Shown: piece by piece, positions 17,231 to 46,863 of the stretch | How the letters are laid out: each line of letters begins with the position of its first letter | Position numbering within the stretch: position 1 is the first letter of the stretch | Source of the DNA: Mytilus trossulus | Taxonomy: Eukaryota | Reading direction: 5' to 3' | DNA: 64,000 bases | NCBI RefSeq assembly: GCF_036588685.1 | Contig: NC_086374.1 | Location: forward strand, 90,396,001 to 90,460,000 | Made by a program: the position numbers and the translations under genes | Notes under the pieces: model-generated | Told to the model about the DNA's origin: nothing | Database searches by the model: none | The model's input: only the letters and a program-made list of their open reading frames with translations

Positions 17231-18478
17231 TTAACTTTTAAATGATCTTGGCGTGGATCTTGCAGTAGATTTTGGTGTTCCAACGCGTCCAATGTGTGCC
17301 ACTTTTTGCTGAATTGATCCAAGGCGAGTTGTAGATTTGACTAAATCATACGGATATTCAACAGTTATGTCAATCGATTTTAATCTAGCCGATACCATTT
17401 TGATCTCGTCCTCCATGGCCTTTGTCTGCATGCGAATGGCTGCTAGTTCTTGCACTGCCTGAGTATTACCAGAATTTTCTTGGATGCTGTCCAAGAGCAT
17501 TTTATAGAAATTCAATGTGTTATTCTTTGTTTTGAATGTCTTTGCTTCCTTTTCGAGTTCTGTTTGTTTTTGTGTGTGGAATGCATCGAGTTCTGTGGCC
17601 AAATTATCTTCCAATTCATCTAAATGGGTATTTATCTTTTCTCTAAATTCTCGAAGTCTTCCCTGCTCAAATTTCAATTGGTCATCCAGTTTCTTTTTAT
17701 TTTGCATTCGACCTTGAAAAAGTTTCTCCGTTTCAGTTTCTAAAGTGTCTACGGCTTTACGCAGCCTCATAGTACTAGGGTCCATTTTTATATTGATAGC
17801 AACTTGATGTAAAAGAACTACAGTGCAACCTTTATGCATGACCTTTGCACAAATCGGACAGCATGGCGTCCATTCCTCTTTGCAGAAATGAGTCATTTCT
17901 TCATTATGATGGTATTTACATTTGCGAACGAACTCAAAATTTCCAGGAGTAAGCATCTCTTTAAGCCTAACAACCGGATGTCGGAGTTTAGTTGTTGTTA
18001 AATCTTTATGATAGTCAGCATGTTCATCACACAGAGCCTGAGCACAGTAGCCACACCATGAAGAAGCCTTGGATTCCCTTCCACGTTCCTTACAACGATT
18101 ACAAGATGGCGAAGACGCACATTTTCTACTCATCAATGTAGAAATTAATGTACTAGTTGGAAGATTCTCGGCAAATTCTTTAGCAGACATATTCGAAACA
18201 GTGGCGGCAGGCATTTCGCAAACCGGACAGGAAACATGCGAAGAAGATTTTGTATCCTTAATTTGTTGAACATATAACTCTATACAAGATTCACAGAATG
18301 AATGAATGCACGGTAAATGTTTAGGACAACACATGTCCTTCTTGCACAAATGACATGTTGTAAGATTGAGAATGGACTCAAATGGCGTCTCGGACTTCCT
18401 GCTTTGGACAGAAGCAGACGAATGCTGCCTCTTCTTTAGATGTGGTCCTTTTGACGTTGTAAAGATTGCGCTCGACAT
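17231..18478 (-). CDS. TRIM/RBCC E3 ligase A (RING, B-box1, B-box2, coiled coil; no C-terminal domain), 415 aa, single coding exon
   Basis: C3HC4 RING CHLC..LPCIHSFCESC..CPVC; B-box1 CNRC..WCGYCAQALCDEHADYH; B-box2 CKYH..FCKEEWTPCCPIC..H..C; long heptad region. AATAAA on - at 17076-17081. Confidence 0.92.
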   Translation of the reverse strand: MSSAIFTTSKGPHLKKRQHSSASVQSRKSETPFESILNLTTCHLCKKDMCCPKHLPCIHSFCESCIELYVQQIKDTKSSSHVSCPVCEMPAATVSNMSAKEFAENLPTSTLISTLMSRKCASSPSCNRCKERGRESKASSWCGYCAQALCDEHADYHKDLTTTKLRHPVVRLKEMLTPGNFEFVRKCKYHHNEEMTHFCKEEWTPCCPICAKVMHKGCTVVLLHQVAINIKMDPSTMRLRKAVDTLETETEKLFQGRMQNKKKLDDQLKFEQGRLREFREKINTHLDELEDNLATELDAFHTQKQTELEKEAKTFKTKNNTLNFYKMLLDSIQENSGNTQAVQELAAIRMQTKAMEDEIKMVSARLKSIDITVEYPYDLVKSTTRLGSIQQKVAHIGRVGTPKSTARSTPRSFKS

Positions 18479-18782
18479 CTTTTCTTGCTGTCCACCTATT
18501 TTGAAACAAATTTACTGTAATTCGGTCCTCAAAATCTTCCTTATTGATTTTAATATATGAACAATGTGTCAGCATTATATGTACGTAGACAAAACTTGTA
18601 GCCTTTCTGAAATTACTGATCCATATTAAGAGTAACAAATACAAATATTGAATTAGTTCGATGCCCATGAGTGATATGAGCAAGTGGAATTTAATATTTT
18701 GATATTGTTAACACATTGATATCTTTGCCGTTTTAAATTTTATTTTGTTTTACTTCTGTCTTTCTTTACATAAATGATTGTC

Positions 18783-19887
18783 CCCGTACGAAATAAGTAG
18801 TAGGATTCCACCCAGACACTAGTAGGAATGAAGTAGGAAACCACATAGATTCAAAGATTCTATATAGAAAGTAGACGGACATGGAAAATGAACAAAAGTC
18901 TGACTGGATTTTTTAATATTCCCACTTCAAAAATCCTACTACCTAGGTGGAATTGTTAAAGTCTGTATAGATTTTTTTTTGTTTTGAAAATCTGAGTTGA
19001 TTATTTATTTTCCTACTACATGTTTATGATTCCTACCAGAATTTATTTATAAATTCCTACCAGAAAATATTTCTACCTGGAAAGTTATCTTGAACTGGAT
19101 TCCTGTTTGCAAATGACACACATTTTGCAATGTTAAATGCAAGCAAGTTCCAGTTCACAAATTCAAAAGTTGGAGGGGAAAGATTGAAAAATTGTGTTGG
19201 AATACAATGATGCAAGCTAGGGTCACACAACGTAACAATGTAGAAATGTAAGAAAATGTGGATAATCAAGACTAAAGGTAATTCTTATACATTCAAGATG
19301 ATTGTTTTGTATCTGCCTGCCAAAAGTATTTAGTAATCAATTAATAATTCATTAATAGTGCATAATCTTACTCATTATTTGTTCTTTAAACTAATTTAGA
19401 TCTACATGTTCTTTATGTATAACACTTTCTATAGCTTGCATACATTACATGCAGTTTCCTTAAACATTTCAAAAGTCTATTTTTTTTAAAAAGGAATTGA
19501 TTCCATGAATGTCCTTTGCTCTTTGTTGTTGAGATTCAAACTTATCATTGACCCAGTTGTGTATTTTTGAATATACACTTACATTTTGTATATTTTTAGA
19601 TTCCTACTAGAAAATATTTTTTTCTGGGTGGAATTTTGAAAAATTCCTACCAGGTTTTCTAGTAGGAATTTTATTTTCCTACCAAATTATTCCTGCTAAT
19701 TTGCATATTCCTGGTAGGAATATACAATATTCCTACTAAGAAATTCCTGCTAATTTAAATTTTTCGCCTATTTTCCGTGTGGATTCCTACTACTGTCTGA
19801 CTGGAATATCACTTTTTTCTGGTAGGAATTCAAAGCAAACTTCCTACTATATTCTGTGTACATTCCATACAGATTGTTTCATACAGG
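18783..19887. mobile_element. Degenerate TIR element with subterminal TAGTAGGAAT / ATTCCTACTA repeats (possibly CMC/EnSpm-like)
   Basis: Ends CCCGTACGAAATAA / TTGTTTCATACAGG; the CCTAC motif recurs many times in both orientations near each end. Confidence 0.45.
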
Positions 19888-19956
19888 TCATACTTTGTAT
19901 TTCTTACTTTTAATGGTATGATCAAAATGATGTGAATATTAATCTTGGCCAGATAT

Positions 19957-21486
19957 TACGGGGCGCCGAATGGGACTCTTGTGGTTTTGTACAAAATTCA
20001 ATTCTGTCATAACAAAATCATTTTTGTCTTACAAAACTATGTGCTACAGATTTGTTTTGTGAGAACTTCAATTTTGTGATGACAAAATTCATTTGTGTAG
20101 ACAAAATTCATTTTTGTCATGACAAAATTCATTTTTGTAGACAAAATTCATATTTGTCATGACAAAAGTCAATTTTGTCTTAAAGGTATGCAAATATAAA
20201 CATATTTGCCTACAAAATTGACTTTTGTTACCTGATATGGAAATTAAATCACAAAAGTCAATTGTGTACGGTAAGATTCAATTTTGTGAGACAAAATTGA
20301 CTTTTGTGAAACAAAATTAACTTTTGTGAGACAAAATTGACTTTTGTGAGACAAAATTGACTTTTGTGAGACAAAATTGACTTTTGTGAGACAAAATTCA
20401 ATTTTGTCATTTTTGTTGAGACAAAATTCAATTTTGTCATTTTTGTTGAGACAAAAGTCAATTTTGTTAATTTTGATGAGACAAAAGTCAATTTTGTAAA
20501 TTTTGTTGAGACAAAAGTCAATTTTGTTAATTTTGTTGAGACAAAAGTCAATTTTGTTAATTTTGTTGAGACAAAAGTCAATTTTGTCAATTTTGTTGAG
20601 ACAAAGGTCAATTTTGTCAATTTTGTTGAGACAAAAGTCAATTTTGTGACGACAAAATTCATTTTTGTGATGACAAAATTCAATTTTGTAACAACAAAAT
20701 TGACTTTTATGAGACAAAATTGACTTTCGTGAGACAAAATTGACTTTCGTGAGACAAAAATCAATTTTGTTGAGACAAAATTCAATTTTGTTGAGACAAA
20801 ATTCAATTTTGTCATTTTTGTTGAGACAAAATTCAATTTTGTTAATTTTGTTGAGACAAAATTCAATTTATTCAATTTTGTTGAGACAAATTCAATTTTG
20901 TCAATTTTGTTGAGACAAAATTCAATTTTGTCAATTTTGTTGAGACAAAATTCAATTTTGTCAATTTTGTTGAGACAAAATTCAATTTTGTCAATTTTGT
21001 TGAGACAAAATTCAATTTTATCAATTTTGTTGAGACAAAATTCAATTTTGTCAATTTTGATGCGACAAAAGTCAATTTTGTCAATTTTGTGTAACAAAAG
21101 TCAATTTTGTGTAACAAAAGTCAATTTTGTGTAACAAAAGTCAATTTTGTGTAACAAAAGTCAATTTTGTGTAACAAAAGTCGATTTTGTATGCAAATTA
21201 GTTCACAGAAACCAAACTAAACTAATTTAAATACCAAATTGACTTTTGTCGCTCAATTTTCAATTTAGGTAACAAAAGTCAAGTCTGTGTAACAAAAATG
21301 AATTTTGTCATGACAAAAGTGACTTTTGTCCGCTGATAGATAATTTTGTATGACAAAATTTCAAATTTGTAGTATGATACAAATTTTGTTAAACTGAACT
21401 CATTTTTGTTGAACAAAAGTCACTTTTGTCCGTACAAAATTGAATTTTGAGTACAAAACCACAAGAGTCCCATTCGGCGCCCCGTA
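19957..21486. mobile_element. Foldback-like non-autonomous DNA transposon filled with palindromic 20/30-bp repeats
   Basis: Perfect 36-bp TIR TACGGGGCGCCGAATGGGACTCTTGTGGTTTTGTAC; direct repeat GATAT on both flanks; interior made of GAGACAAAATTCAATTTTGT variants. Confidence 0.9.
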
Positions 21487-21944
21487 GATATAGAGTAGAA
21501 GTTAAAACTTCTAAATTGTCCAAAATTATGCTTCGTAAATTTCAAAGCACCTTATTTATTATAATTATCACATTCAATTTTGTATATAAATCTTGTGAAC
21601 AATGGCGAAAATCTGCGATATTCTGTATTCACTAAAAAACTGATTGGATGAATAAAATTATACTTGAAGTCTTTGTTCATTATCACTTCAGTTAAGTTTA
21701 AAATGTCAGCCTAGTTTGTACATTTTATATTTTCAAGTTTTCGTATCTTGTCGAAGCCAAGAGAACCTAAAGTGATCGTCATAAATTATATAATGAGTGT
21801 AAGTTACGTTTGAAAATCAACCTTAACTTGGCACATTTTTCAACATCAAATGCACAAAGTTATCACTTAATCTTCAAAATAATGGTAGGAAAATTTGTCT
21901 CCTGTTTGTTCCGTTCATAATTGTCATTCTCCCAGTCGTTAGTG

Positions 21945-22895
21945 AATACATGGATTGTCAGTGTGTGCATGGATTGTCAGTATGTACATAGATTGTCAGT
22001 GTGTACATGTATTGTCAGTGTGTGCATGGATTGTTAGTATGTACATAGATTGTCAGTGTGTACATGTATTGTCAGTGTGTGCATTGATCGCCAGTCTGTA
22101 CATGTATTGTCAGTGCAAACATGGATTGTCAGTCTGTACATGGATTGTCAGTGTGTACATGTATTGTCAGTGTGTGCATTGACTCGCCAGTCTGAACATT
22201 GATTGTCAGTGTATACATGGATTGTAAGTGTGTACATGGATTGTCAGTCTGTACATGGATTGTCAGTGTATACATAGATTGTCTGTGTGTACATGGATTG
22301 TCAGTGTATACATGGATTGTCAGTGTGTACATGGATTGTCAGTGTATACATGGATTGTCAGTGTGATCATGGACTGTCAGTGTGTACATAGATTGTCATT
22401 TAATACATGAATTGTCAGTGTGTACATGGATTGTCAGTGTGTACATGGATTGTCATTGAATACATGAATTGTCAGTGTGTACATGGATTGTCAGTGTGTA
22501 CATGGATTTTCAGCGTATACATGGATTGTCAGTGTATACATGGATTGTCAGTCTGTACATGGATTGTCAGTGTGTACATGGATTGTCAGTCTATACATGA
22601 ATTGTCAGTGTGTGTATGGATTGTCAGTCTGTTCATGGATTATCTGCGTATATATGGATTCTCAATGTGTACATGGTGTGTCAGTGTGTGCATGGATTTT
22701 CAGTGTATACATGGGTTGTCAGTCTGTTCTTGGATTGTCTGTGTATTAATGGATTGTCTGTGTTAACATGGATTTTCTGCGTATATATGGATTGTCAGTG
22801 TTAACATGGATTTTCTGCGTATATATGGATTGTCAGTGTTAACATGGATTTTCTGCGTATATATGGATTGTCAGTGTGTACATTGATTGTCAGTA
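21945..22895. repeat. 19-bp minisatellite (CATGGATTGTCAGTGTGTA)n, about 50 copies
   Basis: Visible 19-nt periodicity; the distal end carries three copies of a 38-bp dimer. Confidence 0.95.
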
Positions 22896-22910
22896 CACCT
22901 TTTTATATTT

Positions 22911-24220
22911 TTAGCTCACCTGGCCCAAAGGGCCAAGTGAGCTTTTCTCATCACTTGGCGTCCGGCGTCCGGCGTCCGTCGTCCGTCGTCGTCCGGCGTT
23001 AGCTTGTACAAAAATCTTCTCCTCTGAAACTACTGGGCCAAATCAAACCAAACTTGGCCACAATCATCATTGGGGTATCTAGTTTTAAAAATGTGTGGCG
23101 TGACCCGGTCATCCAACCAAGATGGCCGCCACGGCTAAAAATAGAACATAGGGGTAAAATGCAGTTTTTGGCTTATAACTCAAAAACCAAAGCATTTAGA
23201 GGAAATCTGACATGGGATAAAAATGTTCATCAGGTCAAGATCTATCTGCCCTGAAATTTTCAGATGAATCGGTTAACCTGTTGTTGGGTTGCTGCCCCTG
23301 AATTGGTAATTTTGAGGAAATTTTGCTGTTTTTGGTTATTATCTTGAATATTATTATAGATAGAGATAAACTGTAAACAGTAATAATGTTCAGCAAAGTT
23401 AGATTTACAAATAAGTCAACATGACCGAAATGGTCAGTTGACCCCTTTAGGAGTTATTGCCCTTTATAGTCAATTTTTAACCATTTTTCATAAATCTAAG
23501 TAATCTTTTACAAAAATCTTCTCCTCTGAAACTACTGAGCCAAATTAATCCAAACTTGGCCACAATCATTTTTGGGGTATCTAGTTTAAAAAATGTGTGG
23601 CGTGACCCGGTCAACCAACCAAGATGGCCGCCACGGCTAAAAATAGAACATAGGGGTAAAATGCAGTTTTTGGCTTATAACTCAAAAACCAAAGCATTTT
23701 GAGGAAATTTGACTTGGGGATAAAAATGTTTATCAGGTCAATATCTATCTGCCCTGAAATTTTCAGATGAATTGGACAATCGGTTGTTGGCTTGCTGCCC
23801 TCCAATTGGTAATTTTTAAAGAAATTTTGCCGTTTTTGGTTATTATCTTGAATACTATTATAGATAGAGATAAACTGTAAACAGCAATAATGTTCAGCAA
23901 AGTAAGATCTACAAATAAGTCAACATGACCTAAATAGTCAATTGACCCCTTAAGGAGTTATTGCCCTTTATAGTCAATTTTTAACAATTTTCATTAATTC
24001 GGTAAATTTATGTAAATTTTTAACAAATATTTTTCTCTGTTACTAATGGGCAAGGTTCATTATAGATATAATTGTAAGAAGCAAGAACGTTCAGTAAAGT
24101 AAGAACTTGAAACACATCACTATCACCAAAATACAATTTTGTCATGAATCCATTTGTGTCCTTTGTTTAATATGCACATAGACCAAGGTGAGCGACACAG
24201 GCTCTTTAGAGCCTCTAGTT
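22911..24220 (+). mobile_element. Helentron-associated non-autonomous element (HINE; DTC84/Pearl-like architecture) with ~2.3 internal ~505-bp units
   Basis: 5' subterminal GCTCACCTGG with nearby inverted copy, (CGTC/CGTCCGG)n microsatellite, tandem core repeats, 3' CCAAGGTGAGC and hairpin AGGCTCTTTAGAGCCT, T-rich insertion site. Confidence 0.85.
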
Positions 24221-26128: not shown

Positions 26129-27382
26129 CTAATTATAAAGAGTACTTTTCGACCTTCTGAGTGACCAGTGTCCTAGTCCTAAATTACGACCAAATTCTTT
26201 AATATGGACGGAACCCATTTTTGGCAGTGCTTTTTCCAAATCATGTACCGGTTGAACAGATAAGTTCGTACGTTTCAAGGTTCTCTTTCTCTGCTGTATA
26301 TCACAGTTTATATTTTCTGTTTGTTCTCTCAGTTTAGCCAACTCTGTAACGGATTGGAGGCTGGTTGATTTTGAATGAATAGCCTCTAACATTAGTTTAT
26401 AATATTTTACTGTCCGTAGTCTTGTATCAATGATCATTTTCTCATTTTCTAAATCGCTTTTAACCTTTTCATATTTTGACTCTAGTTCTCCATTTAAGTT
26501 TTGTTCTATTTCATCTAGGTATTCGTCCATAACTTTACGGAAAATTGAAATGTTATCTTTTCCCATTTGGAGTTGTTCGTCTAATCTTTGTAAATTACGT
26601 TTTCTATCATCTGAAAGCTCTTGAGATTCAGTTTCAAGAAAGTCTAGTTTCGGATCTAATTCCTTCGTAGTATGATTTCCTTTAATTTCCGGGGCAACTT
26701 CTGATATCTGTAGCACGCCTTTATTAAGGAAATAGCAGGTTCTGTGCTGTATTTTCCCACAAATGTTACACGTTGTTGTCCAGTCACGAGGACAAAAGTA
26801 CGCCATGTCCTCTTTTGGATGATGAACGCACTTTTGATAAGGGAATCTCAGCTTTGTAGCATCTTGTAGATCTGTCGTAGGGTGGTAGATCTTCATTGTG
26901 GTTAGCTGCCGATGCAAATCCATGTGATCGAAACATAACGCATTTGCACAGTATCCACACCACTTCACAGCCTCCCTTGTGCAACCATCATTAAAATGAC
27001 AAACCTTTTGTTCAATGGCTGGTTCACATAACAGAGTGGAACACACGGTACCAATTGGTAGGTTTTCTGCGTACGATTTAGCGTTTAGTTTGCCTAATGT
27101 TTGGAACACCATCATTTTGCATTCTGGACAATGTATTTCTATCTTTCCCGGAGAATCCTTGATAATTTTCTCCACATATTTTGTCAGACATGGTTCACAA
27201 AACGAATGCAAACAAGGAAGGCACTTAGGTACACGGATTTGTTTGTCACAAAGGATACAGAGTAGAATATCCACCACTTTCGCTTTATCGTCTGCTTCTG
27301 TATCAGTAATTTCCGGCTCCTCAGCCACAATATTTACAGGTTCTTCTTTTGGAGGTTCGTCTTTCGGCTTCTTGGACGCCAT
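26129..27382 (-). CDS. TRIM/RBCC E3 ligase B (RBCC only), ~417 aa, single coding exon
   Basis: RING CILC..LPCLHSFCEPC..CPEC; WCGYCANALCFDH; CVHHPKEDMAYFCPRDWTTTCNIC; coiled coil. The first ATG is at 27382 (track start 27397 is TTG). Confidence 0.92.
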   Translation of the reverse strand: MASKKPKDEPPKEEPVNIVAEEPEITDTEADDKAKVVDILLCILCDKQIRVPKCLPCLHSFCEPCLTKYVEKIIKDSPGKIEIHCPECKMMVFQTLGKLNAKSYAENLPIGTVCSTLLCEPAIEQKVCHFNDGCTREAVKWCGYCANALCFDHMDLHRQLTTMKIYHPTTDLQDATKLRFPYQKCVHHPKEDMAYFCPRDWTTTCNICGKIQHRTCYFLNKGVLQISEVAPEIKGNHTTKELDPKLDFLETESQELSDDRKRNLQRLDEQLQMGKDNISIFRKVMDEYLDEIEQNLNGELESKYEKVKSDLENEKMIIDTRLRTVKYYKLMLEAIHSKSTSLQSVTELAKLREQTENINCDIQQRKRTLKRTNLSVQPVHDLEKALPKMGSVHIKEFGRNLGLGHWSLRRSKSTLYN

Positions 27383-27813
27383 GTTGGACGTAACCAATGG
27401 ATATGTTGCATACTGCCATTTAGGTTTACAGAAATATTGATGAACGATAAAGGTCTCTTCGTATGGTTATTTGACTTTATGTAGGTCTCCATTGTAACTT
27501 GACGAATTGTTTAAATCTTATCTACATAGTCCTTAGTAATTTAGTAAACGGTTGGTGTTTAAAACAGTAAACGTATTCTATAGCAGACACGAACTAAACT
27601 GACATATAATATCACTAAATGTATTTGAAATTAACTTAAGGTATTTAATGTTATTTAATATTTGAAAATTACAAAAGAATTGATTATAACTCGTATTAAA
27701 TAACGATGAAATGCATTGGAAATAAATATGTATAACTAAGGTTAATACCTTTTATACCGTTACATAAGCTGTTCATCTTTTTTTTTTATAAATATATAAA
27801 ATTTACTTGATAT

Positions 27814-28130: not shown

Positions 28131-28328
28131 ATATATCTGTTTGACGAATTCCTAACGTATTTTTTACCAAGACTCTGAGCTTACTGACAATAATCAATAA
28201 TAAAGACAAATTAAAATAAGAAAACTAAACATTTAAGAATATTTATACATAATTTAAATAAATATCTCTTAATAAATTAAGTTTTGAGCAACTTTAATGC
28301 CAAGTGCTGCACATGCTGAACAAATGAA

Positions 28329-29933
28329 TTACAGAGTGGATTTTGATAGTGATGTCCCCTTAAATAGGTTGGTTTTAGATCTGATTGGTGGTGGTACTGG
28401 TGCAAGTTTGTAGGCTGATATTTCCCGCCTTTGTAGAGATCCCATTTTATTGATTTGTTTGAAATATTCTGCGTAGGTTGTAATTGATACTTCAAAAGTT
28501 TTGGCTTTTCTTTTAAAGGTATGGATATCACCTTCAACGTTTTTAGTTTGGTCCCTAAGCTGCGACATTTCAGTTATTGCTTGGGTATCTGGCGAGTGTA
28601 TGGTTATATTTTCCATTAGGTTTTGATAGTGAACGACAGTCCTCAGTTTAATTTCCGCTTTGTCTCTTTCTTCTTCTAGATCTATCCGTGTGCGCTCGTA
28701 AATCTCGGTAAGCTCGTCATGAAGGTCATCTTCCAGCTGGTCAAGGTGATCGTTGATGTTTTGTCGTATTGTAGAAATACTTTCACGACCTAACCTCAGC
28801 TGTAACTCAAGTTCATCAAGATTTTTTATTCGGTCATCGGAAATTTCTTCGGCTTCTTCACGTAACGTATCTAGTCGTTTCTTTAAAGTTTTAGCATGCT
28901 TACTGTCTTTTACTCTTACTGCAGCGACCGGAAGTGGTACGACACTTCCTTTCTGATTGTCGCATATCTTGTGCAACATCTTACGGCAAACATGGCAACA
29001 CGGAGTCCATTCCTCTTTACAAAATAAATGCAGATCTTCTTTCTTGTGAAAATGACACTTTTGATAAGGGAACATTAAAGTGTTTGATTTTCCTCTAATG
29101 TCATCTAGGCTCACCGTTGGATGGCGCTGTTTTATTGAAGTTAATTGTTTGTGGTATTGAACATGCTCTTCACAAAATGCAAGTGCACAGTAACCACACC
29201 AAGACACTGCTTTATTTAAATCACTGTTACATACATTACAAAGTCTTGTCCTTGCTGCCTTTTTGCTAAGAACCGTCGAAATCAGCGTACTTGTAGGCAG
29301 AGATTCGATATATTCCCGAGCATTAATTCTGTTCCTTGATACAAGAACTACAGCATGGCATAATGGACACGTGATCGTTGTTGTTTTCGAACGGTCAATC
29401 AATTTTTTAACATATGTTTCTAGGCAAGATTCACAAAAAGAATGCAAACATGGCAATATCTTTGGCATTCGCATATTCTCGGAACAGAGTGGGCATTTGA
29501 CTAGAAGAAACTGAGCCTCTTTTTGGTCATGAGAAGGTCCGTTGAGTTCAAGATCTAACGAAACCTCAGTCGTTGCACGTGACAATGATGTGCCACTTCT
29601 TTCTCCGTCAGTTCGAGGGGAATTCTCTTTGCTATTTATATCACCATTTAATATTGAATCTTTTAATTCTTCTACATTTTCGTTTACACTAAAATTCCTC
29701 GTTTGTTCCGTGTTACTATCATCCCTCGTTTCAATTGGTTCTTCTTTGTTTGTACCTGGTGGATCTTTTGAATTTCGGGATTCACCATTCTGACTAGATG
29801 TTTTGAACTGTTGCATATCCGCTCCATCATCTGGTTGTTTACCAGTGACTTGATCATACAGATTGTTCTCCAAGTGATCTGCTACTGTTTCTTGATGAGT
29901 AAGAACATTATATTGCTGTACTTCATCAGCCAT
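28329..29933 (-). CDS. TRIM/RBCC E3 ligase C (RBCC only, ~145-aa acidic disordered N-terminus), 534 aa, single coding exon
   Basis: RING CPLC..LPCLHSFCESC..CPLC; WCGYCALAFCEEH; CHFHKKEDLHLFCKEEWTPCCHVC; coiled coil. Confidence 0.92.
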   Translation of the reverse strand: MADEVQQYNVLTHQETVADHLENNLYDQVTGKQPDDGADMQQFKTSSQNGESRNSKDPPGTNKEEPIETRDDSNTEQTRNFSVNENVEELKDSILNGDINSKENSPRTDGERSGTSLSRATTEVSLDLELNGPSHDQKEAQFLLVKCPLCSENMRMPKILPCLHSFCESCLETYVKKLIDRSKTTTITCPLCHAVVLVSRNRINAREYIESLPTSTLISTVLSKKAARTRLCNVCNSDLNKAVSWCGYCALAFCEEHVQYHKQLTSIKQRHPTVSLDDIRGKSNTLMFPYQKCHFHKKEDLHLFCKEEWTPCCHVCRKMLHKICDNQKGSVVPLPVAAVRVKDSKHAKTLKKRLDTLREEAEEISDDRIKNLDELELQLRLGRESISTIRQNINDHLDQLEDDLHDELTEIYERTRIDLEEERDKAEIKLRTVVHYQNLMENITIHSPDTQAITEMSQLRDQTKNVEGDIHTFKRKAKTFEVSITTYAEYFKQINKMGSLQRREISAYKLAPVPPPIRSKTNLFKGTSLSKSTL

Positions 29934-32903: not shown

Positions 32904-34259
32904 CTATTGCTGTGATATTCGTGGAGATATGTTGAACTTTACACCCGCACGAGGCGAAGACATTTTTGACAAAACGCTCATTTGACGTGATGGCGACTGG
33001 GAATTACGTAATCTAGAATATTTAGGCGCTACAACTCCTATCTTGAAAATGTTCTTAAAAGTCTCGTGACTTAGACTAACTTGAATCGCAATCTTTTGAA
33101 GTTTATATTTATCTAGTCTTAGCTCATCTTCCAATCTGTGCGCATTGTGTCGGATATCAGCCAGATTAGAAAGCGATTGTATGTTGGAAGCATCTTTTAG
33201 AACAACTGAAAGCATGGTTTTATACATCAAAGACGTTTGATGTTTCATGTCAACTATATGGGCTTCGCGCTCCAGTTCCTTTAATTTTTCACTGTGCACT
33301 TGGTCTAACTCGTGACACAGTTGTTGTTCAAGATCATCTAATTGTTTGTTGATCTGAAGACGGAACTCTTTGATGTTTTCTTTCTCCAAACTCACTTGTT
33401 TGTTCATAGATTCGATATTGCTAAGGATGTCCTGCCTCATCTTCTCTGTGTGTGTCGATATGGATTCTAGTTTTCTTTTCAAGTTAGTAATCTCGCTGTG
33501 AGTTTTGATGGTTGATGTGTCGTGTTCGATCAGACAAGTGTTACACATTCCATGGAGTCGTTTGGAGCAAATATTACAACAAATGTTCCAATGGTCATTA
33601 CAAAATAACTTCATGTCCTCTTTTTCATGATATTTACACTTCTTAGATGCAAATCCAATATCCGGGTTCTTAATGACCTCATCAACATCAAAGACGGGAT
33701 GTCGGTTGCTAGTCAACGAAAGGTGGTATTCTAAATGTTCATCGCAGAGAGTCTGTGCACAATACGCACACCAGTTATCGGCCGTAGTGTCACGCCCGTG
33801 TTGTTTGCAGCGTTTACACTTTTTCTGGTGTAAATCTTTCTTACTTAGAAGTGACGAAACCAACGTACTGACAGGTAAACTTTCCGCAAATGTTTTTGTT
33901 TCGTCTGAAGCCCTTGGTACGGATATATGGTACTCACATGTTGGACAAACCACGTGCATGTTGGTCGATTGCGCCTTTTCTTGTTTTATGTGCTTTGTAA
34001 TACATGTTTCACAAAACGTATGAAGACAGGGCAAATGCTTCGGTGAGCACATGTCTTGTTTGCAAAGGTTACATACCACAAGGTCATTCACCTCTGCAGG
34101 ATCCATGTTGTCACCCTCAGATGCAGTCGATTTCTTTCTCGAATCCCTTTTCTTGCCTTTCCCCAGATCTTGTGCTTTAGCTGATCCTTTTTCCAATTTA
34201 GTAGTCTTTGGCAACTTTTCACTCTGTTTGATAACGTCATTTTTCTTAACAGAAGACAT
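32904..34259 (-). CDS. TRIM/RBCC E3 ligase D (RBCC only, Lys-rich N-terminus), 451 aa, single coding exon
   Basis: RING CNLC..LPCLHTFCETC..CPTC; WCAYCAQTLCDEH; CKYHEKEDMKLFCNDHWNICCNIC; coiled coil. Confidence 0.92.
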   Translation of the reverse strand: MSSVKKNDVIKQSEKLPKTTKLEKGSAKAQDLGKGKKRDSRKKSTASEGDNMDPAEVNDLVVCNLCKQDMCSPKHLPCLHTFCETCITKHIKQEKAQSTNMHVVCPTCEYHISVPRASDETKTFAESLPVSTLVSSLLSKKDLHQKKCKRCKQHGRDTTADNWCAYCAQTLCDEHLEYHLSLTSNRHPVFDVDEVIKNPDIGFASKKCKYHEKEDMKLFCNDHWNICCNICSKRLHGMCNTCLIEHDTSTIKTHSEITNLKRKLESISTHTEKMRQDILSNIESMNKQVSLEKENIKEFRLQINKQLDDLEQQLCHELDQVHSEKLKELEREAHIVDMKHQTSLMYKTMLSVVLKDASNIQSLSNLADIRHNAHRLEDELRLDKYKLQKIAIQVSLSHETFKNIFKIGVVAPKYSRLRNSQSPSRQMSVLSKMSSPRAGVKFNISPRISQQ

Positions 34260-35993: not shown

Positions 35994-37973
35994 TTATAGC
36001 AATGTGATGGCATTATTTTCATACGACACGAACATCTTTCCAGCATTTGGAATTAATGCAATTGGCTTCCGGAAATGTGGATCCTCGGGCGTCATTATTT
36101 CTAACAGGTTTGCCTCGGGGGATACTTGGTGAACATTGTTTGAATGAAATCCACAGACATACACGTGACCTTTTGAATCGATAGCAACACCCATTGGAAG
36201 TTTGAGATGTTTATGTGAGTATTGGAAAATATTGACTCCGTCCATATTGACGCAATTGAGAGTTCCGCGTTCGGATGAGTCGGTGTAGTAGATACGACTA
36301 TCGTCTGCCACGGCAACATACTTTACTTTATCTCCCTTAGTAGATATTGACTTCTCATGCATAAGTTTATGCTCTTCGGTGATATCCCATATGTCTAGCT
36401 TTGACTTACAAGCCACGATTAACTTTGTTCCTGTACTTGCCAGACCATATCCTTTATCCGTTGTTTTATAGAAATGTTTTAACTGCTTTTCCAATGAAAT
36501 GTTTCCTATTTCAATCAGTTGAATTTGATTGTCCTTCGGAAAAGTAATAGCTACGACATCGCGGTTTTTCTTTTGAGGAAGTAGTGCTACGTCAAAAGGA
36601 TTACCCGGAAGTGAAAATGTCAAAGTGGTGTCTCTCTTTCCGTATTCTGTATAGGAACGAAGTTCTTTTCCTCTGTTGTCAACCAAGAACAAGTTGGAAT
36701 TTAAACTTATTCCTCCAGAAATGAAACTGCATTGGAATTTCAAGGCTAAAAACTTATTTCTTCTTTCTCTCTCAATTACTGTGCTATGAGCAGTATGGAC
36801 ACTAACCTTTCTTTCTTCTTTGCCTTCGATTTTAGGTTTTGTTTGCCTCACTTTCACCTCGGCAAGCTGGGTGATATTACCTGTCACGTCGAGTGGAATT
36901 ATATCCACTTCACTTTTGGAAAGCATTGATTTTTTATGGTAAACATGTTCATCTAGTATTTTGACCTGTTCAATAAGTTTTTCTACTTGATGATAAGCTT
37001 GTGCATCGGTGGTAGATCTGCCAACAGCTTCGGCAAGTATTTTATAATGATCGAGTGTGGCGTCTTTGTCTTTGAAACTTTTGATATCGTTATTCATATC
37101 TTCTATCTCTGCAGCATGTGCTTTACTAAGTTCGTCTTTCAGTGTTACCTCTAAGCTGTCAAGATGCTGATTAATTACGTCTCGCAGTGTCTTGATCGCG
37201 GCCTCTTTTTGGGTCTTTTGATTGTTTAGATCTGTTATATTTTGCTCTCTATTCTTGATAATATTGGCTACTTCCGTTTTCATCTTGTCAACTGCCGTGA
37301 CACCGAATGTATTCTTCATTGCATCTACAGCATGTTTAATGTCTGCTATCCGACACTCACTATGGTGTAAAGAACGACAGTCACTACAGCAAAGTTTTTT
37401 GTGATCCATACAATATTTCTCCAATTTTTTACGTCCATGTTTTTGCTTGGTGCAAAAAGTTGGTGGATATACTAATGATGGATCTTTCTCAATTTCCGAA
37501 ATCGCGTTCACTTTGTGTGTATCACGTGGTGTCATTGCATTATGGCGGACAGCATGCTCCTCGCACATGGCCTCTGCACAATAAGCACACCATGATGCAG
37601 CGTCTGTCTTTTTATTGTTTATCTGGCATGTTTTACAAACCTTTGTTTTCAGTGCATCCTGTACCATTAATGCCGATATAAAGTGATCTGTTGGAAGTTT
37701 GTTGACCAGGCTGTTGACATCCTTTGTGCGAGCGTCAGGAAGTGGAGCTATGCAGATAGGGCATTTCAGCTGTGCCGTAGAATCTGTATCTAAAGCTGAT
37801 TTAAGATTCTTAATAATACAGTCCTCACAGTAGGAATGTAGGCATGGCAGCTGCTTCGGAGCTGTGTACGTGTTTTTGCAAAGATGACATTTTGTCAAGT
37901 CTACTCCATGGCCTGCTTTTGACTTCGAACCATTCACAGAAACAGTAGTTGGTCTCGACACATCAGCTGCCAT
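35994..37973 (-). CDS. TRIM-NHL-like E3 ligase E (RBCC plus NHL/beta-propeller), ~659 aa, single coding exon
   Basis: RING CHLC..LPCLHSYCEDC..CPIC, two B-boxes, coiled coil, then repeats such as LKLPMGVAIDSKGHVYVCGFHSNNVHQVSPE (NHL-type blade). The first ATG is at 37973 (38000 is TTG). AATAAA on - at 35869-35874. Confidence 0.92.
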   Translation of the reverse strand: MAADVSRPTTVSVNGSKSKAGHGVDLTKCHLCKNTYTAPKQLPCLHSYCEDCIIKNLKSALDTDSTAQLKCPICIAPLPDARTKDVNSLVNKLPTDHFISALMVQDALKTKVCKTCQINNKKTDAASWCAYCAEAMCEEHAVRHNAMTPRDTHKVNAISEIEKDPSLVYPPTFCTKQKHGRKKLEKYCMDHKKLCCSDCRSLHHSECRIADIKHAVDAMKNTFGVTAVDKMKTEVANIIKNREQNITDLNNQKTQKEAAIKTLRDVINQHLDSLEVTLKDELSKAHAAEIEDMNNDIKSFKDKDATLDHYKILAEAVGRSTTDAQAYHQVEKLIEQVKILDEHVYHKKSMLSKSEVDIIPLDVTGNITQLAEVKVRQTKPKIEGKEERKVSVHTAHSTVIERERRNKFLALKFQCSFISGGISLNSNLFLVDNRGKELRSYTEYGKRDTTLTFSLPGNPFDVALLPQKKNRDVVAITFPKDNQIQLIEIGNISLEKQLKHFYKTTDKGYGLASTGTKLIVACKSKLDIWDITEEHKLMHEKSISTKGDKVKYVAVADDSRIYYTDSSERGTLNCVNMDGVNIFQYSHKHLKLPMGVAIDSKGHVYVCGFHSNNVHQVSPEANLLEIMTPEDPHFRKPIALIPNAGKMFVSYENNAITLL

Positions 37974-40532: not shown

Positions 40533-40908
40533 CGCCATCACGAGTTGGTTGACCGTTATGGAATAACCGTTTCACAAATGATATCGGATATGTTCCTTAC
40601 GTCGTAACTACAATCCCCTTCCCTTTCATGAATTTGACCTACCGAATAAGACTATTTACCGGATTTGTAATCACATAAGCAACACGACGGGTGCCGCATG
40701 TGGAGCAGGATCTGCTTACCCTTCCGGAGCACCTGAGATCACCCCTAGTTTTTGGTGGGGTTCGTGTTGTTTATTCTTTAGTTTTCTATGTTGTGTCATG
40801 TGTACTATTGTTTTTCTGTTTGTCTTTTTCATTTTTAGCCATGGCGTTGTCAGTTTGTTTTAGATTTACGAGTTTGACTGTCCCTTTGGTATCTTATGTC
40901 CCTCTTTT
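40533..40908 (+). mobile_element. 5'-truncated retroelement tail insertion with ~24-bp target-site duplication
   Basis: Homologous to 25074-25445; flanked by AAGAAATCAAAAGTATGTTTAGTA (40509-40532) and AAGGAATTAAAAGTATGTTTAGTA (40909-40932). Confidence 0.75.
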
Positions 40909-41369
40909 AAGGAATTAAAAGTATGTTTAGTATACAGGGTTAAGAAATAAAAAGTATGTAATAATTTTATTTCAGAAACAGACCAAGATTTTAAATAGTC
41001 CAAAAGTTCTATAGAATTAATTAGAATCCATTTCACTACTCGAAAAAATAATGTTGACGTGTGTGGTTCCACGTATTTTCTAATTTATAATAGAAATATA
41101 ACATAGTGACATACCATAGAACAATAACATATTGATAGACTCTTTTAAAGTACAAAGTAACGTTATAAGAACCAACGAAACACAAAATGTCGCACATACA
41201 AAACACACCAGGAAAAATGAAAGAAAACACAACCACATTGACGGGAGCTATAAGTACTGAGCCACGTTAAATGAATATCACAGAAAACAATCCAACAGTA
41301 AAAGATATTTTATTCATAGAACAAAGACTAATGAAAAAACAATATAAAACGTTGTTAAAATGATAAACA

Positions 41370-42060
41370 ACGTCAGTACGAAGAATCTGTACATCAATAC
41401 AATCATGTACTATTTGTGAAGTTGATACGGAATATTTATCAACAATGTTTTGTACCTTCCGGTGAACTATTTTTTAGAGAAAGGACGAGACGTTCTTCGA
41501 CATATCCCTGGTTCATCAACTTTCTGCTCAGACACGTTTAACAAAGTCTGAGTAGGAGCTGCAAGCTCTTGAATATCTCATTAATTTGGAAATGTATATC
41601 CCATATGCAGGTGAGGTTGGTATATTGCTGTTAAGGATTTATAATTACAAAATTGTCATAGATTCGTGTACTGAGATGACTGTGTATATTAAATTCGAGA
41701 TATAAGTCTAAAAATGGGAAGGAGGAAGCCGTGTCTGTTGTTTCTTTAATTTCTAGTTCTGGGGGATATATTAATGGAACCCAATCAGAAAAATTCGGAT
41801 TGTTTATGGAAAGAACATCATCAATATATCTGAAAGTGAAATTAAATAATCTGACTTCTTTGTTCCTCTTGCTTTTGACAAGTGTCTGAAGGAACTCCGA
41901 TTCATATTAAAAAAAGAAAAGGTCGGCAAGGAGAAGCGCACATTTTGTTCCCATAGGGATGCCGACAATTTGTTGAAAAAGTCTACCTCCAAACTTAACA
42001 AATAAGTTGTAGGTAAGAAACTACAGCATACTGATCACTTGTTCTTATGTGTAGCATGTA
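41370..42060 (-). mobile_element. Decayed Penelope-like reverse transcriptase; non-coding tail probably extends to ~40090
   Basis: Minus-strand peptides LFQQIVGIPMGTKCALLLADL and NFTFRYIDDVL (catalytic YIDD), interrupted by stops and frameshifts. Confidence 0.8.
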
Positions 42061-42949
42061 ACTTTCTTATACACGAATACTACATTCATGTTCTGACATT
42101 CACACAATATTTAGGATGGAGATGGGAATAGTAAATGTTATAAGATGTATGCGTTTGCCATTTGATTAGTGACTTTCCGCTTTGAATTTTCTTCGGAATT
42201 CATTATGTTTGTGATATAACTTTTTTAGGGTATTTTATAATGGGTAATATGATTTCAAGTCAAAACAGAATTAAAAAGTTACATGTTATATTGTTCTGTA
42301 TATTTTTCTTTGTACATTTGACATCCTTTCTGCTTAGTTCAAGTTTGGTAATATATGATTATGTCGTAGTTTGGTATGTGTACATCCCAGCATAGTGTCA
42401 CTGTGCAATTGTATTGTTTTGTATTGTATTGTATTTTATTTTTGTTCATGTACTTTGGCTTTAGAATGTCAATATGCCATTCTGTTTTTCTTTGTTGAAA
42501 TAGTTATTTGGTATATGTTATATAGTGATTAAGATTATAACCTAATGTTGACTGCTGTATACTACCCCAATAATACCTATTTTGTCTGGGTTTTTTTTCT
42601 GTTTTTGGAAATATGTGTACCAATTCTTTTTTCAATTTGTTTGATATGTTTTAGCTTTTGATTTTGCCATTTGATAAAGGACTTTCCGTTTTGAATTTTC
42701 GTTGAAGCTCGGTATTTCTGTTATTTTACTTTTTACCAATGAGGCAAATGAAACTCATGAATTAAAAAAGGACCGAACAAATTATTGATAAAAAATAAAA
42801 AATAAAAGTAGATAATATCAACATTATAATACATATATGTGTTATGATTGCAATTGAGTCAACTATCCACAAGAGACCAAATGACACGCATACGTTTTAA
42901 CTGATTTGAAAAATAAACAGCAGTCAGTGTTGAAGTTTAATATTTTAAC

Positions 42950-43885
42950 TAGTGTTGTCAAATCGTACACTTTTGCCTAACCGGTTACTCGGATAATCGT
43001 TCGACCGATTAACCGGTTAATCGGTAGTTTTAAGTTGTCGTTTGAAAGCCTTTTCAATAGTACCATACATGTACACATAGTTATAAGATGTGGTATAAGT
43101 GTCAATTTGACAACCTTTCATCCAAGTCATAATACTACGATTAAAGAATTGAAGTTTGTCCTTTGGCATTATAAGGCTTGTCTGTGAGGATTCCAGGAGA
43201 AGTTTGGTTTTTGATAAACAAATACACCGTATCAACTATAGCATTTGTACCAACAACAAAAAAAAAGATATGGTATGATTCCCAATGAAACAATTGTCCA
43301 CAAGAGACTAAAATGACACAGAAATTAATAACTATAGCTCAACATACGACCTGTTTCTTTACTGTGTTTGCTTGTTTCGTTAAGCATGTTACTCGTACTA
43401 TCACGTATACCTTGAGTACATTAATATTAGTTTGCATTTCACACTTTTTAAGGCAGCATTTCGTTTAAAGAAAGACTAAACCTTGCACTACTGAGTTTAC
43501 ACATTTAGATGTTTACACAATATTAGATCAAAAACGAAATAATGAACTAATTAGTAAAATTTAATCGCATCTCTGATTTAAAGTTATTGTTAAAAAAACA
43601 TGTTTACCGATCATGTTTCTTTAAGGTCCTGCCCCGAGCTCTAATTAATTTTATGTATTTAGGATCAACAATAGCAATCAATATACTGGACAATTGATCT
43701 GTCAAATAAATAACTACGACGACATTTTTAAAATAAAACCTAACTATTTAATGATTTCCATGCAAATTTATATCAAAACTATTAAAATTGAAAAAAAGTC
43801 CGGTTAACCGGTTAGCGTTTTTGGTATTCGGTATTCGGTCGTTCGACCGGTTAACCGGTTAACCGGTTAACCGTTGACAACACTA
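42950..43885. mobile_element. Non-autonomous hAT-like DNA transposon
   Basis: 12-bp TIR TAGTGTTGTCAA / TTGACAACACTA; exact 8-bp TSD ATTTTAAC (42942-42949 and 43886-43893); subterminal AACCGGTT palindromes. Confidence 0.9.
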
Positions 43886-44535
43886 ATTTTAACCACTTAT
43901 ATACGTGAAGAATTCATTGTTGTACAAGTATATGAAGAAGACAATTGCCGAATTTTAACCTTCGTCGTTACATGTTATGGATTGAGGTAACATATGAACT
44001 GAAGCATAAACTATAACTGATGTACTAAACACAATTTCCTTTCTTTGAGACCAAGCTGTGAAACAAGCCTACACGCTACTACTTAACATAATAAAGCTTC
44101 AGACCAAACAAACAATTATTCACTTTCATTGAAAAGTTGGACGCATTTTTTTTAAGTGCAATCAAGGATTTGTAAACTTAACTTACAATACAAATCCTTT
44201 GTGCAATACCTATTGTAAATTTTCTAACTATTGGCAAACTGAAAGACGCTTCACGACAGATCTACAAATTGATAACATGCATAACATTATCGAGCTGCAG
44301 ACCAAATAAAATAATCCTCGCTTTCATAGAAGGAAAGAAAACTTTGACGACAATTTTTTCTACGAAAGGTCCGGAAAGACGGAATGACAGATTTTACAAC
44401 TTATTTGTGTACATCAATGAGGGAGCAATATCGCGACATAAATCATCGATTTACATCTAAACTTAGGTCTACAGTGGATTTTGTAATCTTTTTATTTGAA
44501 CAAATACACAGCACACCAATCGAGAGAGTACAGTG

Positions 44536-46863
44536 TTAATACAACGACGTAATTTTGTGTTTGTCATATGTCACAAAGATTTTACCATCCATTTCAATGA
44601 GAAATAACGGTTTGTTGAAGTGTGAATCTTTAGGCGTTGTCACTTTCATAAGAACACCCTCGGGACTTATCAAATGTATATTATTCGAGTAGTATGCAGC
44701 GACATACACATTCCCGCTTTGATCTAAGACTAGCCCCATTGGCATCCGCAGATTATGATGACTATAAGAAAATATATTGGTGCCATCTAAAGTTGTGCAA
44801 ACCACTGAACCTTTGTCTGCTGAATCAGAATAATAAATCCTGTTGTCGGCTGCACAGACGTAGTTAACGTGATCCCCTTTGGTCAATATGCTTCTCTCGA
44901 ACATCAAATTATAGTCCTCGTCCATTCGCCATATTTCAAGCTTTGTATGACATGCAACTATGATATATCCATCCATATAAGATATTCCGTAACATTTTCC
45001 ATTGGTCTTATAATAAGCTCCTTTTGTATTGTGGTCATCTCCGAATTCCAGAACTTGCAATCGATTTTTTAGGGGAATTGTGGCGATCACCATTAGAGTC
45101 GAGCGTCGAGGTGGCAGAACTGTGACGTCAAACGGATTTGCTTCCTGTTCCGATTTGAACGAGAAAACCTGTTTTTCTTCTCTGTGACCTTCTATTGAAT
45201 AACCGCGTATTTCTTTCCCACGATTGTCAACCAGAAGAAGTGACGACTTCAATGAACACCCTCCTGTTATTTTACTGCTGGAATATCTTAGAACAAGAAA
45301 GGTACTGCCCTTTTCCCGCCGCGGATGGAGAAGTTTAGATCTTGGTGTTAGGATTCCGCTGTGTTTTGGTCGTGCTTCAAATGCTGGAGGAGGAGTAATC
45401 GGCCTTTGATTGATTTCTACTTCTGCCAGCTTTCCCATGTTTCCAGCTAAGTTATTGGAAACAACAACAAAATCTGTGCGTTTGAGTTTCGATATTCTAT
45501 GGTGCAAATTTTCGTCCAGGATTTTACACTGGTGTCTAATTTTAGCAAGCTCTGTCAACGCTAAGACATCTGATGAGTTCTTCAAGACACTATCTAATAA
45601 TAGCTTATAAAAGGAAACACTTTGTTGTTTATGTTCAAAAAGTTGGACTTCCTTTTCAATCTCTTTTGTCTTTTGACGATGAATTTTATCAAGATCATCC
45701 ATCATACTACTCTCTAGTTTGTCCAAATGTTCATTTATTTGTTCGCGCATTTTTTTAACAGCTTTTTTCTCTTCTGATTTTTGGTGCTCAAGGTCATCAA
45801 TATTTCTCCTCCTGTCTTGGAGAATATGTTCTGAATGTGATCCCATAATTTCTAAATCCCCAATCAGCCTGGTTGTTTCTGGTTTATTCTTTACGCTAGA
45901 TGCGGCCAATTCCAAAGATTCGACATCGCATAACTCGTGACTTGATTTCCAGCAGATCTCACAACAAGGAAATTTATGATCTTGACAAAAATATTTAATT
46001 CTTTCGTATTCATGAACATTACATTTTCCGGAAGTTTCCGCTATCTGAGGATTTTTCTCGATTTGTGACATCTTAAATACATGATGTATTGATGGTGACG
46101 TCAGAGCGTTGTGGTAAGACAAATGTTCAGGGCACAACGTTTCTGCGCAGTAAGAGCACCATGAGTCGGCTGATGTTCTCTTTCCAGTATTGTTGCAAGG
46201 TTTACATTGCTTTTGTTTGATCTGTTTCTGTACCAACAAAGACGAAATGAAAAGACTCGGTGGTAAACTTTCAGCAAAAACTTTGGCGTCAACGTTATTG
46301 CGCGAATTTGAAACCGGAATTTCGCACACTGGACATCGAATTTGACAATGCGGATCCTCATCTTTTAAGTTTGCCACATTGGAGGAAATACAACCCTCGC
46401 AAAACGCATGGAGGCATGGAAATTGCTTCGGCGCCGTCATCTCCTTGTCACATATTGGACAAACCATTAAATCTGATTTTAAAACGTCGGCCATTGATTT
46501 AGCAGAAATTGGTCTCACTGGTCTGTTTGTCCCATTGTCATGTTGTGGACTGATACCTCCAATTGGATATGAAACTGATTTAGATCCATTTGGTGTCATC
46601 TTGTCGGGAGTGTGTCCTGGTTTCTCTTCAAATGATGGTTTTAAATCCATACTTCCGGTGGTTTCACCAGCATTTGTTGGCATGTTCGTTGCCGATCCTG
46701 TCTCATTCTGTTTTGTCCCATTAACAGGCATAGTGCCATTTTTTTGGTTACTCATACTGTTAATGCTATTGTCTGATGTCTTTAACACGTTCCCATGATT
46801 CACTGGGAAAGGCACAGGACCACCAATTCCTATCTTATCTGAAGAACGAATGCTGGCAGACAT
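44536..46863 (-). CDS. TRIM-NHL-like E3 ligase F (disordered N-terminus, RBCC, NHL/beta-propeller), 775 aa, single coding exon
   Basis: RING CPIC..FPCLHAFCEGC..CPVC, WCSYCAETLCPEH, CNVH..FCQDHKFPCCEIC, coiled coil, LRMPMGLVLDQSGNVYVAAYYSNNIHLISPEG. Propeller is clearly paralogous to gene E (LVDNRGKE, NPFDV, SI.TKGD). AATAAA on - at 44491-44496. Confidence 0.93.
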   Translation of the reverse strand: MSASIRSSDKIGIGGPVPFPVNHGNVLKTSDNSINSMSNQKNGTMPVNGTKQNETGSATNMPTNAGETTGSMDLKPSFEEKPGHTPDKMTPNGSKSVSYPIGGISPQHDNGTNRPVRPISAKSMADVLKSDLMVCPICDKEMTAPKQFPCLHAFCEGCISSNVANLKDEDPHCQIRCPVCEIPVSNSRNNVDAKVFAESLPPSLFISSLLVQKQIKQKQCKPCNNTGKRTSADSWCSYCAETLCPEHLSYHNALTSPSIHHVFKMSQIEKNPQIAETSGKCNVHEYERIKYFCQDHKFPCCEICWKSSHELCDVESLELAASSVKNKPETTRLIGDLEIMGSHSEHILQDRRRNIDDLEHQKSEEKKAVKKMREQINEHLDKLESSMMDDLDKIHRQKTKEIEKEVQLFEHKQQSVSFYKLLLDSVLKNSSDVLALTELAKIRHQCKILDENLHHRISKLKRTDFVVVSNNLAGNMGKLAEVEINQRPITPPPAFEARPKHSGILTPRSKLLHPRREKGSTFLVLRYSSSKITGGCSLKSSLLLVDNRGKEIRGYSIEGHREEKQVFSFKSEQEANPFDVTVLPPRRSTLMVIATIPLKNRLQVLEFGDDHNTKGAYYKTNGKCYGISYMDGYIIVACHTKLEIWRMDEDYNLMFERSILTKGDHVNYVCAADNRIYYSDSADKGSVVCTTLDGTNIFSYSHHNLRMPMGLVLDQSGNVYVAAYYSNNIHLISPEGVLMKVTTPKDSHFNKPLFLIEMDGKIFVTYDKHKITSLY

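Follow-up and report, generated by a model that had tools for sequence, protein, structure and literature searches.

TRIM proteins, whose classes are named here after PMC3503706, carry a RING domain and B-boxes, plus a coiled coil (RBCC). Two residues of their RINGs have been described as determinants for the ubiquitin-charged E2 enzyme (E2~Ub), namely a hydrophobic residue after the second cysteine (Cys2) and a linchpin residue after the last cysteine (PMC6487577, PMC4864278). TRIM pseudoligases are known to exist and can repress their paralogues, as in the inactive-active pair TRIM51-TRIM49 (PMC11992055). A 2026 review names the role of ligase-dead TRIMs and the in vivo weight of TRIM heterodimers as open questions (PMC13591260). 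Here we describe six TRIM genes (g1 to g6) in a 64,000-nucleotide stretch of Mytilus trossulus DNA (contig NC_086374.1, positions 90,396,001 to 90,460,000 of the forward strand), hereafter called the window. These genes belong to a subfamily that, judged from its sequences, lacks the two RING residues that activate E2~ubiquitin, a feature that is new. We give about an even chance to the interpretation that these single-exon TRIM genes make up an old, conserved subfamily with blunted RINGs, whose products would act as pseudoligase-like scaffolds in which short partners tune long ones.

Six single-exon TRIM genes, two with a propeller

The window carries six open reading frames (ORFs) that run from ATG to stop, all on the minus strand and each consisting of a single coding frame.

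17231..18478, minus strand: g1, 415 amino acids; RING, B-box1, B-box2 and coiled coil, then a basic Ser/Thr-rich tail, without a propeller; K46 after Cys2, E88 at the linchpin site of the RING.
26129..27382, minus strand: g2, 417 amino acids; RBCC only; D46 after Cys2, K89 at the linchpin site.
28329..29933, minus strand: g3, 534 amino acids; RBCC only, with a long acidic N-terminal extension; S151 after Cys2, H193 at the linchpin site.
32904..34259, minus strand: g4, 451 amino acids; RBCC only; K67 after Cys2, E109 at the linchpin site.
35994..37973, minus strand: g5, 659 amino acids; RBCC and an NHL-like propeller of six blades (about residues 418-658); K33 after Cys2, I75 at the linchpin site.
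44536..46863, minus strand: g6, 775 amino acids; RBCC and a propeller, with a long N-terminal extension; D139 after Cys2, E181 at the linchpin site.

All six proteins match the Pfam C3HC4 RING profile (the g1 match lies under the curated cut-off), and five of the six give a weak Pfam B-box match. The ligand patterns of the RING, B-box1 and B-box2 are kept in every gene, with all zinc ligands present. Pfam matches, structural models and ligand patterns thus agree on a TRIM/RBCC architecture, and the array proteins are best described from their sequences as TRIMs by architecture that are non-canonical as ligases. The initial annotation had recognized six intact, co-oriented and strongly diverged single-exon TRIM genes, and this description holds, including the divergence, given that RBCC identity between array paralogues is only 27-42%.

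A propeller profile detects this domain in g5 and g6 alone, as originally proposed. The same profile, applied in six frames to the window, to 10 kb on each side and to 40 kb round a distant seventh member described below (L006), gave nothing further above noise, with no propeller remnants or orphan propeller exons behind g1 to g4, and the window showed no pseudogene. In an alignment, the tails of the short genes stop at approximately the point where the propellers of the long genes start. The g5 model (mean pLDDT 82.3) has a six-bladed propeller by fold, preceded by a disordered linker (residues 385-407). In Foldseek, this propeller resembles, at 13-16% identity, NHL domains from TRIM2, Thin, Brat, TRIM3 and TRIM71. 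Its Pfam NHL match (E 0.054) does not reach the threshold. In the g1 model, residues 377-415 form a disordered tail, and a helix before the RING is predicted with low confidence. The database record for g6 (window 44536-46863) has 739 amino acids and begins at the second Met region, whereas other Mytilus records begin at the first Met (775-776 amino acids).

Two short motifs proposed earlier as family markers hold up as such. The B-box1 signature WC[GAS]YCA is present in all six array genes and in none of 137 background representatives, and a motif resembling LP[TIVP]...S.L is present in all six and in one of the 137. The B-box1 signature is looser in oyster members, where it reads WCSECA, WCKYCA or WCYFCT.

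RINGs without the two canonical residues

The seventh member of the subfamily, L006, has no propeller and resides on the same chromosome (G000:C2:32.44 Mb; L006:1420-2718), 58 Mb from the array. It is solitary, with no other TRIM in the 40 kb fetched, and has its own orthologues in other species.

The two RING positions were placed by alignment to the solved structures of TRIM28, TRIM2 and TRIM3, and they match R69 of TRIM28 and the arginine of CPVCR in TRIM2 and TRIM3. A hydrophobic residue after Cys2 is found in none of 21 subfamily sequences, in contrast to 20 of 22 other loci of the mussel genome and 95 of 125 background RINGs (the remaining 12 of the 137 representatives did not parse); it is also missing from three further orthologues. 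An arginine linchpin occurs in one of the 21 sequences, compared with 77 of the 125 background RINGs and 21 of the 22 other loci, and in none of the seven genes of the mussel genome. The residues after Cys2 and at the linchpin site are K/E, D/K, S/H, K/E, K/I and D/E for g1 to g6 and N/E for L006, such that four of the seven genes have Glu at the linchpin and five have Lys or Asp after Cys2. Orthologues of the short genes have the same residues at these sites, or residues of the same charge class. Background RINGs that lack one of the two canonical residues tend to lack the other as well (both kept in 70 RINGs, only the hydrophobic residue in 25, only Arg in 7 and neither in 23; Fisher P 2e-6, uncorrected for kinship).

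A third position points the same way. The acid corresponding to D21 of TRIM21, which is needed for UBE2N (PMC6776665), is retained by g3 alone among the seven genes, versus 86 of the 125 background RINGs. Substitutions at the two positions have been characterized elsewhere: TRIM25 L17R and TRIM32 M24R reduce activity, inactive TRIM28 carries Arg at that site (PMC6487577), and RNF38 R454E retained trace activity (PMC12326332). The subfamily RINGs therefore diverge in sequence on the E2~Ub side as pseudoligases do, whereas the helices of the RING dimer are not resolved in the models. The subfamily proteins likely serve as scaffolds with little or no catalysis, and their coiled coils are predicted to mediate pairing.

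The propeller-less genes are transcribed

Transcript contigs from four runs (X1, X2, X4 and X24) were compared with window positions 24500-44400 and 1000-19900. The kinds of run were guesses, and all four may contain some DNA. All four contain RNA, because contigs from each skip introns of the neighboring kinase gene at GT..AG joints. Unspliced contigs cross the stop codons of all four short genes with more than 31 letters on each side. The stop of g1 is crossed by an X24 contig (17034-18585), that of g2 by contigs from X1, X2 and X24, that of g3 by contigs from X24 and X4, and that of g4 by contigs from X2 and X24. A single X24 contig covers nearly all of g5 (35992-37971). No GT..AG joint falls inside any TRIM ORF among those listed (15 of 246 and 15 of 150). 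The four propeller-less genes are thus real and transcribed, as the initial annotation assumed, and are not spliced to later domain exons.

In run X4, long pieces match g3 and a single short one matches g2, with none on g1, g4 or g5 among the matches listed, and this pattern is no evidence on co-expression because contigs report presence only. A 5' exon shared by the array was considered and is unsupported; contigs continue unspliced for 17-107 nt 5' of the ATG in g1 to g4. The longest Logan contigs of P0062 (g4) and P0068 (g5) are 5,367 bases each, near the 5,070-base span from g5 to g4, and might represent DNA or a read-through transcript.

The proposal that the array is a co-regulated module found no support in the upstream sequences. 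In the 600 nt 5' of the seven genes, neither shared 7-9-mers nor known motifs (X-box, Fox, CRE, NF-kB and ISRE) rose above background, and the top shared words are common ones of AT-rich composition. A role in testis or cilia is likewise unsupported: in tables of PMC12040131, a g6-like oyster gene is included for gonad as well as gill without a marked sex effect, whereas another oyster relative appears in the gill table only. The latter gene is weakly higher in a dermo-tolerant family (1.86 log2-fold, adjusted P 0.047; PMC9892467). No matching rows were found in the supplements of PMC11556341 and PMC13070813, and B-box and RING orthogroups are included in a table of bivalve expansions (PMC8382680). 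No paper on the cluster was found in the open library, and tissue data may sit in subscription papers or other supplements.

An old subfamily with a single propeller loss

A genome search with g1 scored 101 matches of 1612 candidates. Among 23 other TRIM loci that were fetched, 21 have an unbroken frame from RING to coiled coil, and 19 of these 21 carry a propeller-type end in the same frame. The lack of introns is therefore family-wide, and the retroposed local founder once suggested for this array is not needed to explain it, although no search for an intron-bearing parent was made. A much older retroposition may lie behind the lack of introns.

In a tree of the genome loci, from which the broken copies L008 and L014 were omitted, the six array genes and L006 form one clade (support 100/97) within which the five propeller-less genes group together (96/96). 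A quick tree that includes relatives from other species (SH-aLRT only) supports the subfamily at 100 and the propeller-less clade at 97, and places the latter as sister to g6 at 95. Because the propeller-less clade is single and sister to g6, these trees argue that the propeller was lost one time, in a g6-like copy. The claim of one local family consequently stands as regards the clade, and fails as regards strict local monophyly since distant L006 nests among the six. A stop in the basic linker ahead of the propeller, which would fit the end points of the short tails, would have truncated one g6-like duplicate, and this copy would then have multiplied in the mussel lineage.

When a profile of the six proteins was compared with 1.84 billion representatives, 13 scored at least 306 bits and the next match dropped to 242. 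Named members of the subfamily come from Mytilus, Magallana gigas, Crassostrea virginica, Crassostrea angulata, Ostrea edulis, Pinctada imbricata and Saccostrea, and those from oysters and the pearl oyster are all of propeller length. Propeller-less members were found only in Mytilus and in further records at 65-76% identity, which come as one set per paralogue, finish at a similar place and are presumably from other mussels. For g6, full-length relatives are present in NCBI and Logan. Accessions are consecutive in array order for M. coruscus (CAC5373493-98) and M. edulis (CAG2222046-52), and this order is partly kept in M. galloprovincialis and M. californianus.

Coiled coils are identical at 126-136 of 138 positions across Mytilus species, and RING conservation between orthologues equals that of the B-boxes (38-43 of 55 positions for g1 and 44 of 55 for g4; the values for g3 and g6 are valid only for RING and linker taken together). 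Among 21 listed variants of g2 in one run, 20 are synonymous and one is missense. One-to-one orthologues, conserved order and these mostly synonymous variants indicate purifying selection, in agreement with the suggestion that all ORFs have long been retained. Such slow, one-to-one evolution would be more in keeping with a fixed role in the cell than with an arms race.

Several relatives deserve separate mention. P0011 (CAG2222047.1) is a 184-residue copy of the C-terminal half of g1 that adjoins g1 in one M. edulis assembly, and it could be a partial duplicate or an assembly artefact. A propeller-type member, P0088 (ENA record, 481 amino acids), ends early in the propeller with an unrelated end, which may be the sign of an intron in another species. 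Two proteins of one source, one g1-like and the other g3-like, each have a longest contig of 19,890 bases, which hints at wider linkage. No orthologue DNA was found among 33 metagenome loci (24-33% identity over long matches). These distant TRIMs (L047-L079) share PKHLPC, the linchpin is Gln in 28 of 28 parsed RINGs, and they are likely an independent group with blunted RINGs.

Pairing and a natural two-RBCC fusion

A complex prediction for the B-boxes and coiled coils of g6 and g4, made without use of the supplied alignments, scored 0.62 compared with 0.00 for the best of three controls. The predicted register is antiparallel, runs agree in at least 82% of contacts, and the partner pLDDT is at least 72. 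Of the microbial pairs, 51 of 78 solved ones and 2 of 108 mismatched ones attained the score mark; of the eukaryotic pairs, 71 of 105 solved ones in all, 39 of 65 that lack a like complex and 2 of 126 unrelated ones did so. Because TRIM coiled-coil dimers have already been solved, the result speaks for likeness rather than binding. The earlier idea of heterodimers is accordingly structurally plausible for g6 and g4, and a preference for hetero- over homodimers does not follow.

Three records from ENA and JGI (P0270, P0294 and P0304), representing a cluster of 45 members, contain two complete g3-like RBCC units in one frame of 940-961 residues. The linchpin of the second unit is Arg (CPSCR).

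Explanations for the array

If the subfamily consists of pseudoligase-like scaffolds, g5 and g6 would bind a target via the propeller. A dimer with a propeller-less partner would have half as many propellers and gain a basic Ser/Thr-rich tail, so that the partner would govern how avidly the complex binds, where it is located or how it clusters, instead of its ubiquitin output. The initial annotation had envisaged propeller members as working ligases tuned or amplified by the short ones, and the RINGs argue against this because g5 and g6 are without both canonical E2~Ub residues. Several observations somewhat dampen our enthusiasm for scaffolds. Both residues are also absent from 23 of the 125 background RINGs and from most of the distant metagenome contigs, and the RING change amounts to about one evolutionary event because the 21 sequences form one clade. 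A linchpin other than Arg is found in 30 of 66 human TRIMs (PMC13591260), TRIM8 is active with UBE2N (PMC13769585), XIAP Y485E is barely weaker than wild type (PMC12326332), and restoring Leu alone failed to revive TRIM28 (PMC6487577). Within the subfamily, the linchpin is Lys in g2 and His in g3, and Arg in the Ostrea member and in the second unit of the fusion. The g6-g4 prediction may reflect memory of solved dimers and is silent on which member binds and on homo- versus heterodimers; an ability of paralogues to form heterodimers may be a relic (PMC13591260), and the fusion joins two propeller-less units with no propeller-bearing partner.

In a somewhat doubtful alternative, the genes are independent paralogues with blunted RINGs, each working alone as a homodimer in a separate tissue or stage, with clustering a product of tandem duplication only and heterodimer ability a relic. 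The low RBCC identity (27-42%), the missing upstream motif, the persistence of L006 at 58 Mb with its own orthologues and the propeller in all named oyster members are in its favor, and the same reading has been raised for human pairs (PMC13591260). Conservation of gene order in M. edulis and M. coruscus, the presence of five array genes in the same three runs, the predicted g6-g4 heterodimer and the natural fusion of two RBCC units weigh on the other side. An unlikely possibility is that the proteins are active ligases of a non-canonical kind (UBE2N-only or using a SUMO-type E2), with propeller-less members dampening or amplifying propeller members. All zinc ligands are kept and the RING is conserved between orthologues, TRIM8 and TRIM32 are active without the Arg linchpin (PMC13769585, PMC11992055), a low-confidence helix is predicted before the g1 RING, and the g2 Lys and g3 His are cationic. 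However, both RING sites were lost jointly, often to the opposite charge, and the TRIM21 D21 acid survives in g3 alone of the seven, versus 86 of 125 in the background (PMC6776665).

Less probable again is a mix-and-match clade of bivalve pseudoligases, in which the blunted receptors g5 and g6 would pair with propeller-less partners such that g2 and g3, with a regained cationic linchpin, supply what catalysis there is while g1, g4 and L006, with acidic linchpins, silence it. Sensor and enzyme would then reside in separate chains, and the two-RBCC fusion would be a fixed pair. We consider it very improbable that the array is a fast-turning immune cluster whose short members are truncated copies heading for loss. 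The larger TRIM-propeller family of this genome does include broken or truncated copies (L008, L014 and L012), and one oyster member is 1.86 log2-fold up in the dermo-tolerant family (adjusted P 0.047; PMC9892467). Nevertheless, this view is largely refuted by the one-to-one relatives of the short genes at 65-76% identity with similar ends, the Mytilus coiled coils with 126-136 of 138 positions identical, the 20 synonymous changes among 21 listed g2 variants and the absence of a pseudogene in the window.

Whichever explanation applies, one slowly evolving clade exists inside an otherwise fast-turning TRIM family. The cluster offers a natural test set of seven old paralogues, with and without the sensor and with Glu, Ile, Lys or His as the linchpin, for which canonical relatives, a hundred of them or more within the same genome, can serve as controls. 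It also serves as a warning about the automatic name 'E3 ligase TRIM33/56/71-like', because bivalve genes that bear it may not be ligases, nor full-length.

Flanking genes and repeats

Two intron-rich genes bracket the array, as first described, and a repeat-filled spacer interrupts it.

1426..10121, plus strand: multi-exon protein kinase gene (Pfam Pkinase), convergent with the array, with GT..AG joints in all four runs; presumably NEK7-like.
19990..24000, no strand: satellite- and repeat-filled spacer between g1 and g2, with 20-30 nt arrays, 19 nt arrays and a 500 nt duplication.
51651..63156, minus strand: multi-exon Syf1/CRNKL1 HAT-repeat gene, upstream of and co-oriented with the array, running on beyond the window; we take it to be XAB2-like.

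The last kinase exon encodes a poly-Gln tail, and contigs tile several kb past the last kinase coding exon (window 10121-14900), suggesting a long 3' untranslated region that points at the 3' end of g1. Introns of the Syf1-type gene contain a 48-nt array of 19 copies that yields a spurious 312-residue ORF (window 55626-56534) and a 494-nt tandem repeat of about four copies (window 60038-61942).

Comparison with known TRIM systems

The closest described architecture is that of the TRIM-NHL proteins (class VII or subfamily C: TRIM2, TRIM3, TRIM32, TRIM56, TRIM71, Brat, Mei-P26 and Thin), in which, as in g5 and g6, an RBCC is followed by a six-bladed propeller. The five NHL domains named above are the best propeller matches, and the best RING matches include TRIM2, TRIM3 and TRIM56. 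In TRIM2, TRIM3 and TRIM71, a filamin domain precedes the NHL domain, whereas g5 and g6 have none between coiled coil and propeller (the linker in the g5 model is disordered and there is no Pfam match). They differ further in their propeller identity of 13-16%, in the sub-threshold Pfam NHL match and in having a single coding exon. In addition, the TRIM2 and TRIM3 RINGs have both the Leu and the Arg, and those of g5 and g6 have neither.

The genes g1 to g4 encode an RBCC without a folded C-terminal domain, as in class V, and like TRIM8 these four and L006 have a RING, two B-boxes, a coiled coil, a disordered tail and a non-Arg linchpin (PMC13769585). The mussel tail has about 40 residues versus 200 in TRIM8, and TRIM8 is active and retains the Leu after Cys2. 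The likeness appears to be convergent because the short genes derive from a propeller-bearing neighbor inside the molluscs.

With the TRIM pseudoligases and class VI RINGs (TRIM6, TRIM15, TRIM22 and TRIM51; TRIM24, TRIM28 and TRIM33), the subfamily shares an intact zinc fold with changes on the E2~Ub surface, a charge after Cys2 comparable to R69 of TRIM28 and the occurrence of paralogue pairs such as TRIM49-TRIM51. The inactivity of TRIM6, TRIM15, TRIM22, TRIM51 and class VI has been assayed, whereas that of the mussel proteins is predicted from sequence, and these have no PHD-bromodomain or PRY-SPRY. Because the whole clade is changed, including its sensor-bearing members, the cluster would contain no canonical active partner.

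Nearest at hand is the genome's own expanded family of single-exon TRIM-propeller genes (automatically named TRIM2/3/33/45/56/71-like), which has the same architecture in an unbroken single frame. These include large young arrays (L008-L028; G000 C10 and C11) with canonical RINGs, near-identical copies and some stops, as in L008 and L014, and the short L012. A further single-frame TRIM, L029 (G000:C6:14.83 Mb), has a different C-terminal domain that we take to be PHR-like. The expanded family keeps CxxC-L-E and CPxC-R, uses Cys as the fourth B-box1 ligand and has recent copies and broken genes. In contrast, the array subfamily is free of broken copies, uses His as the fourth B-box1 ligand and has old one-to-one orthologues.

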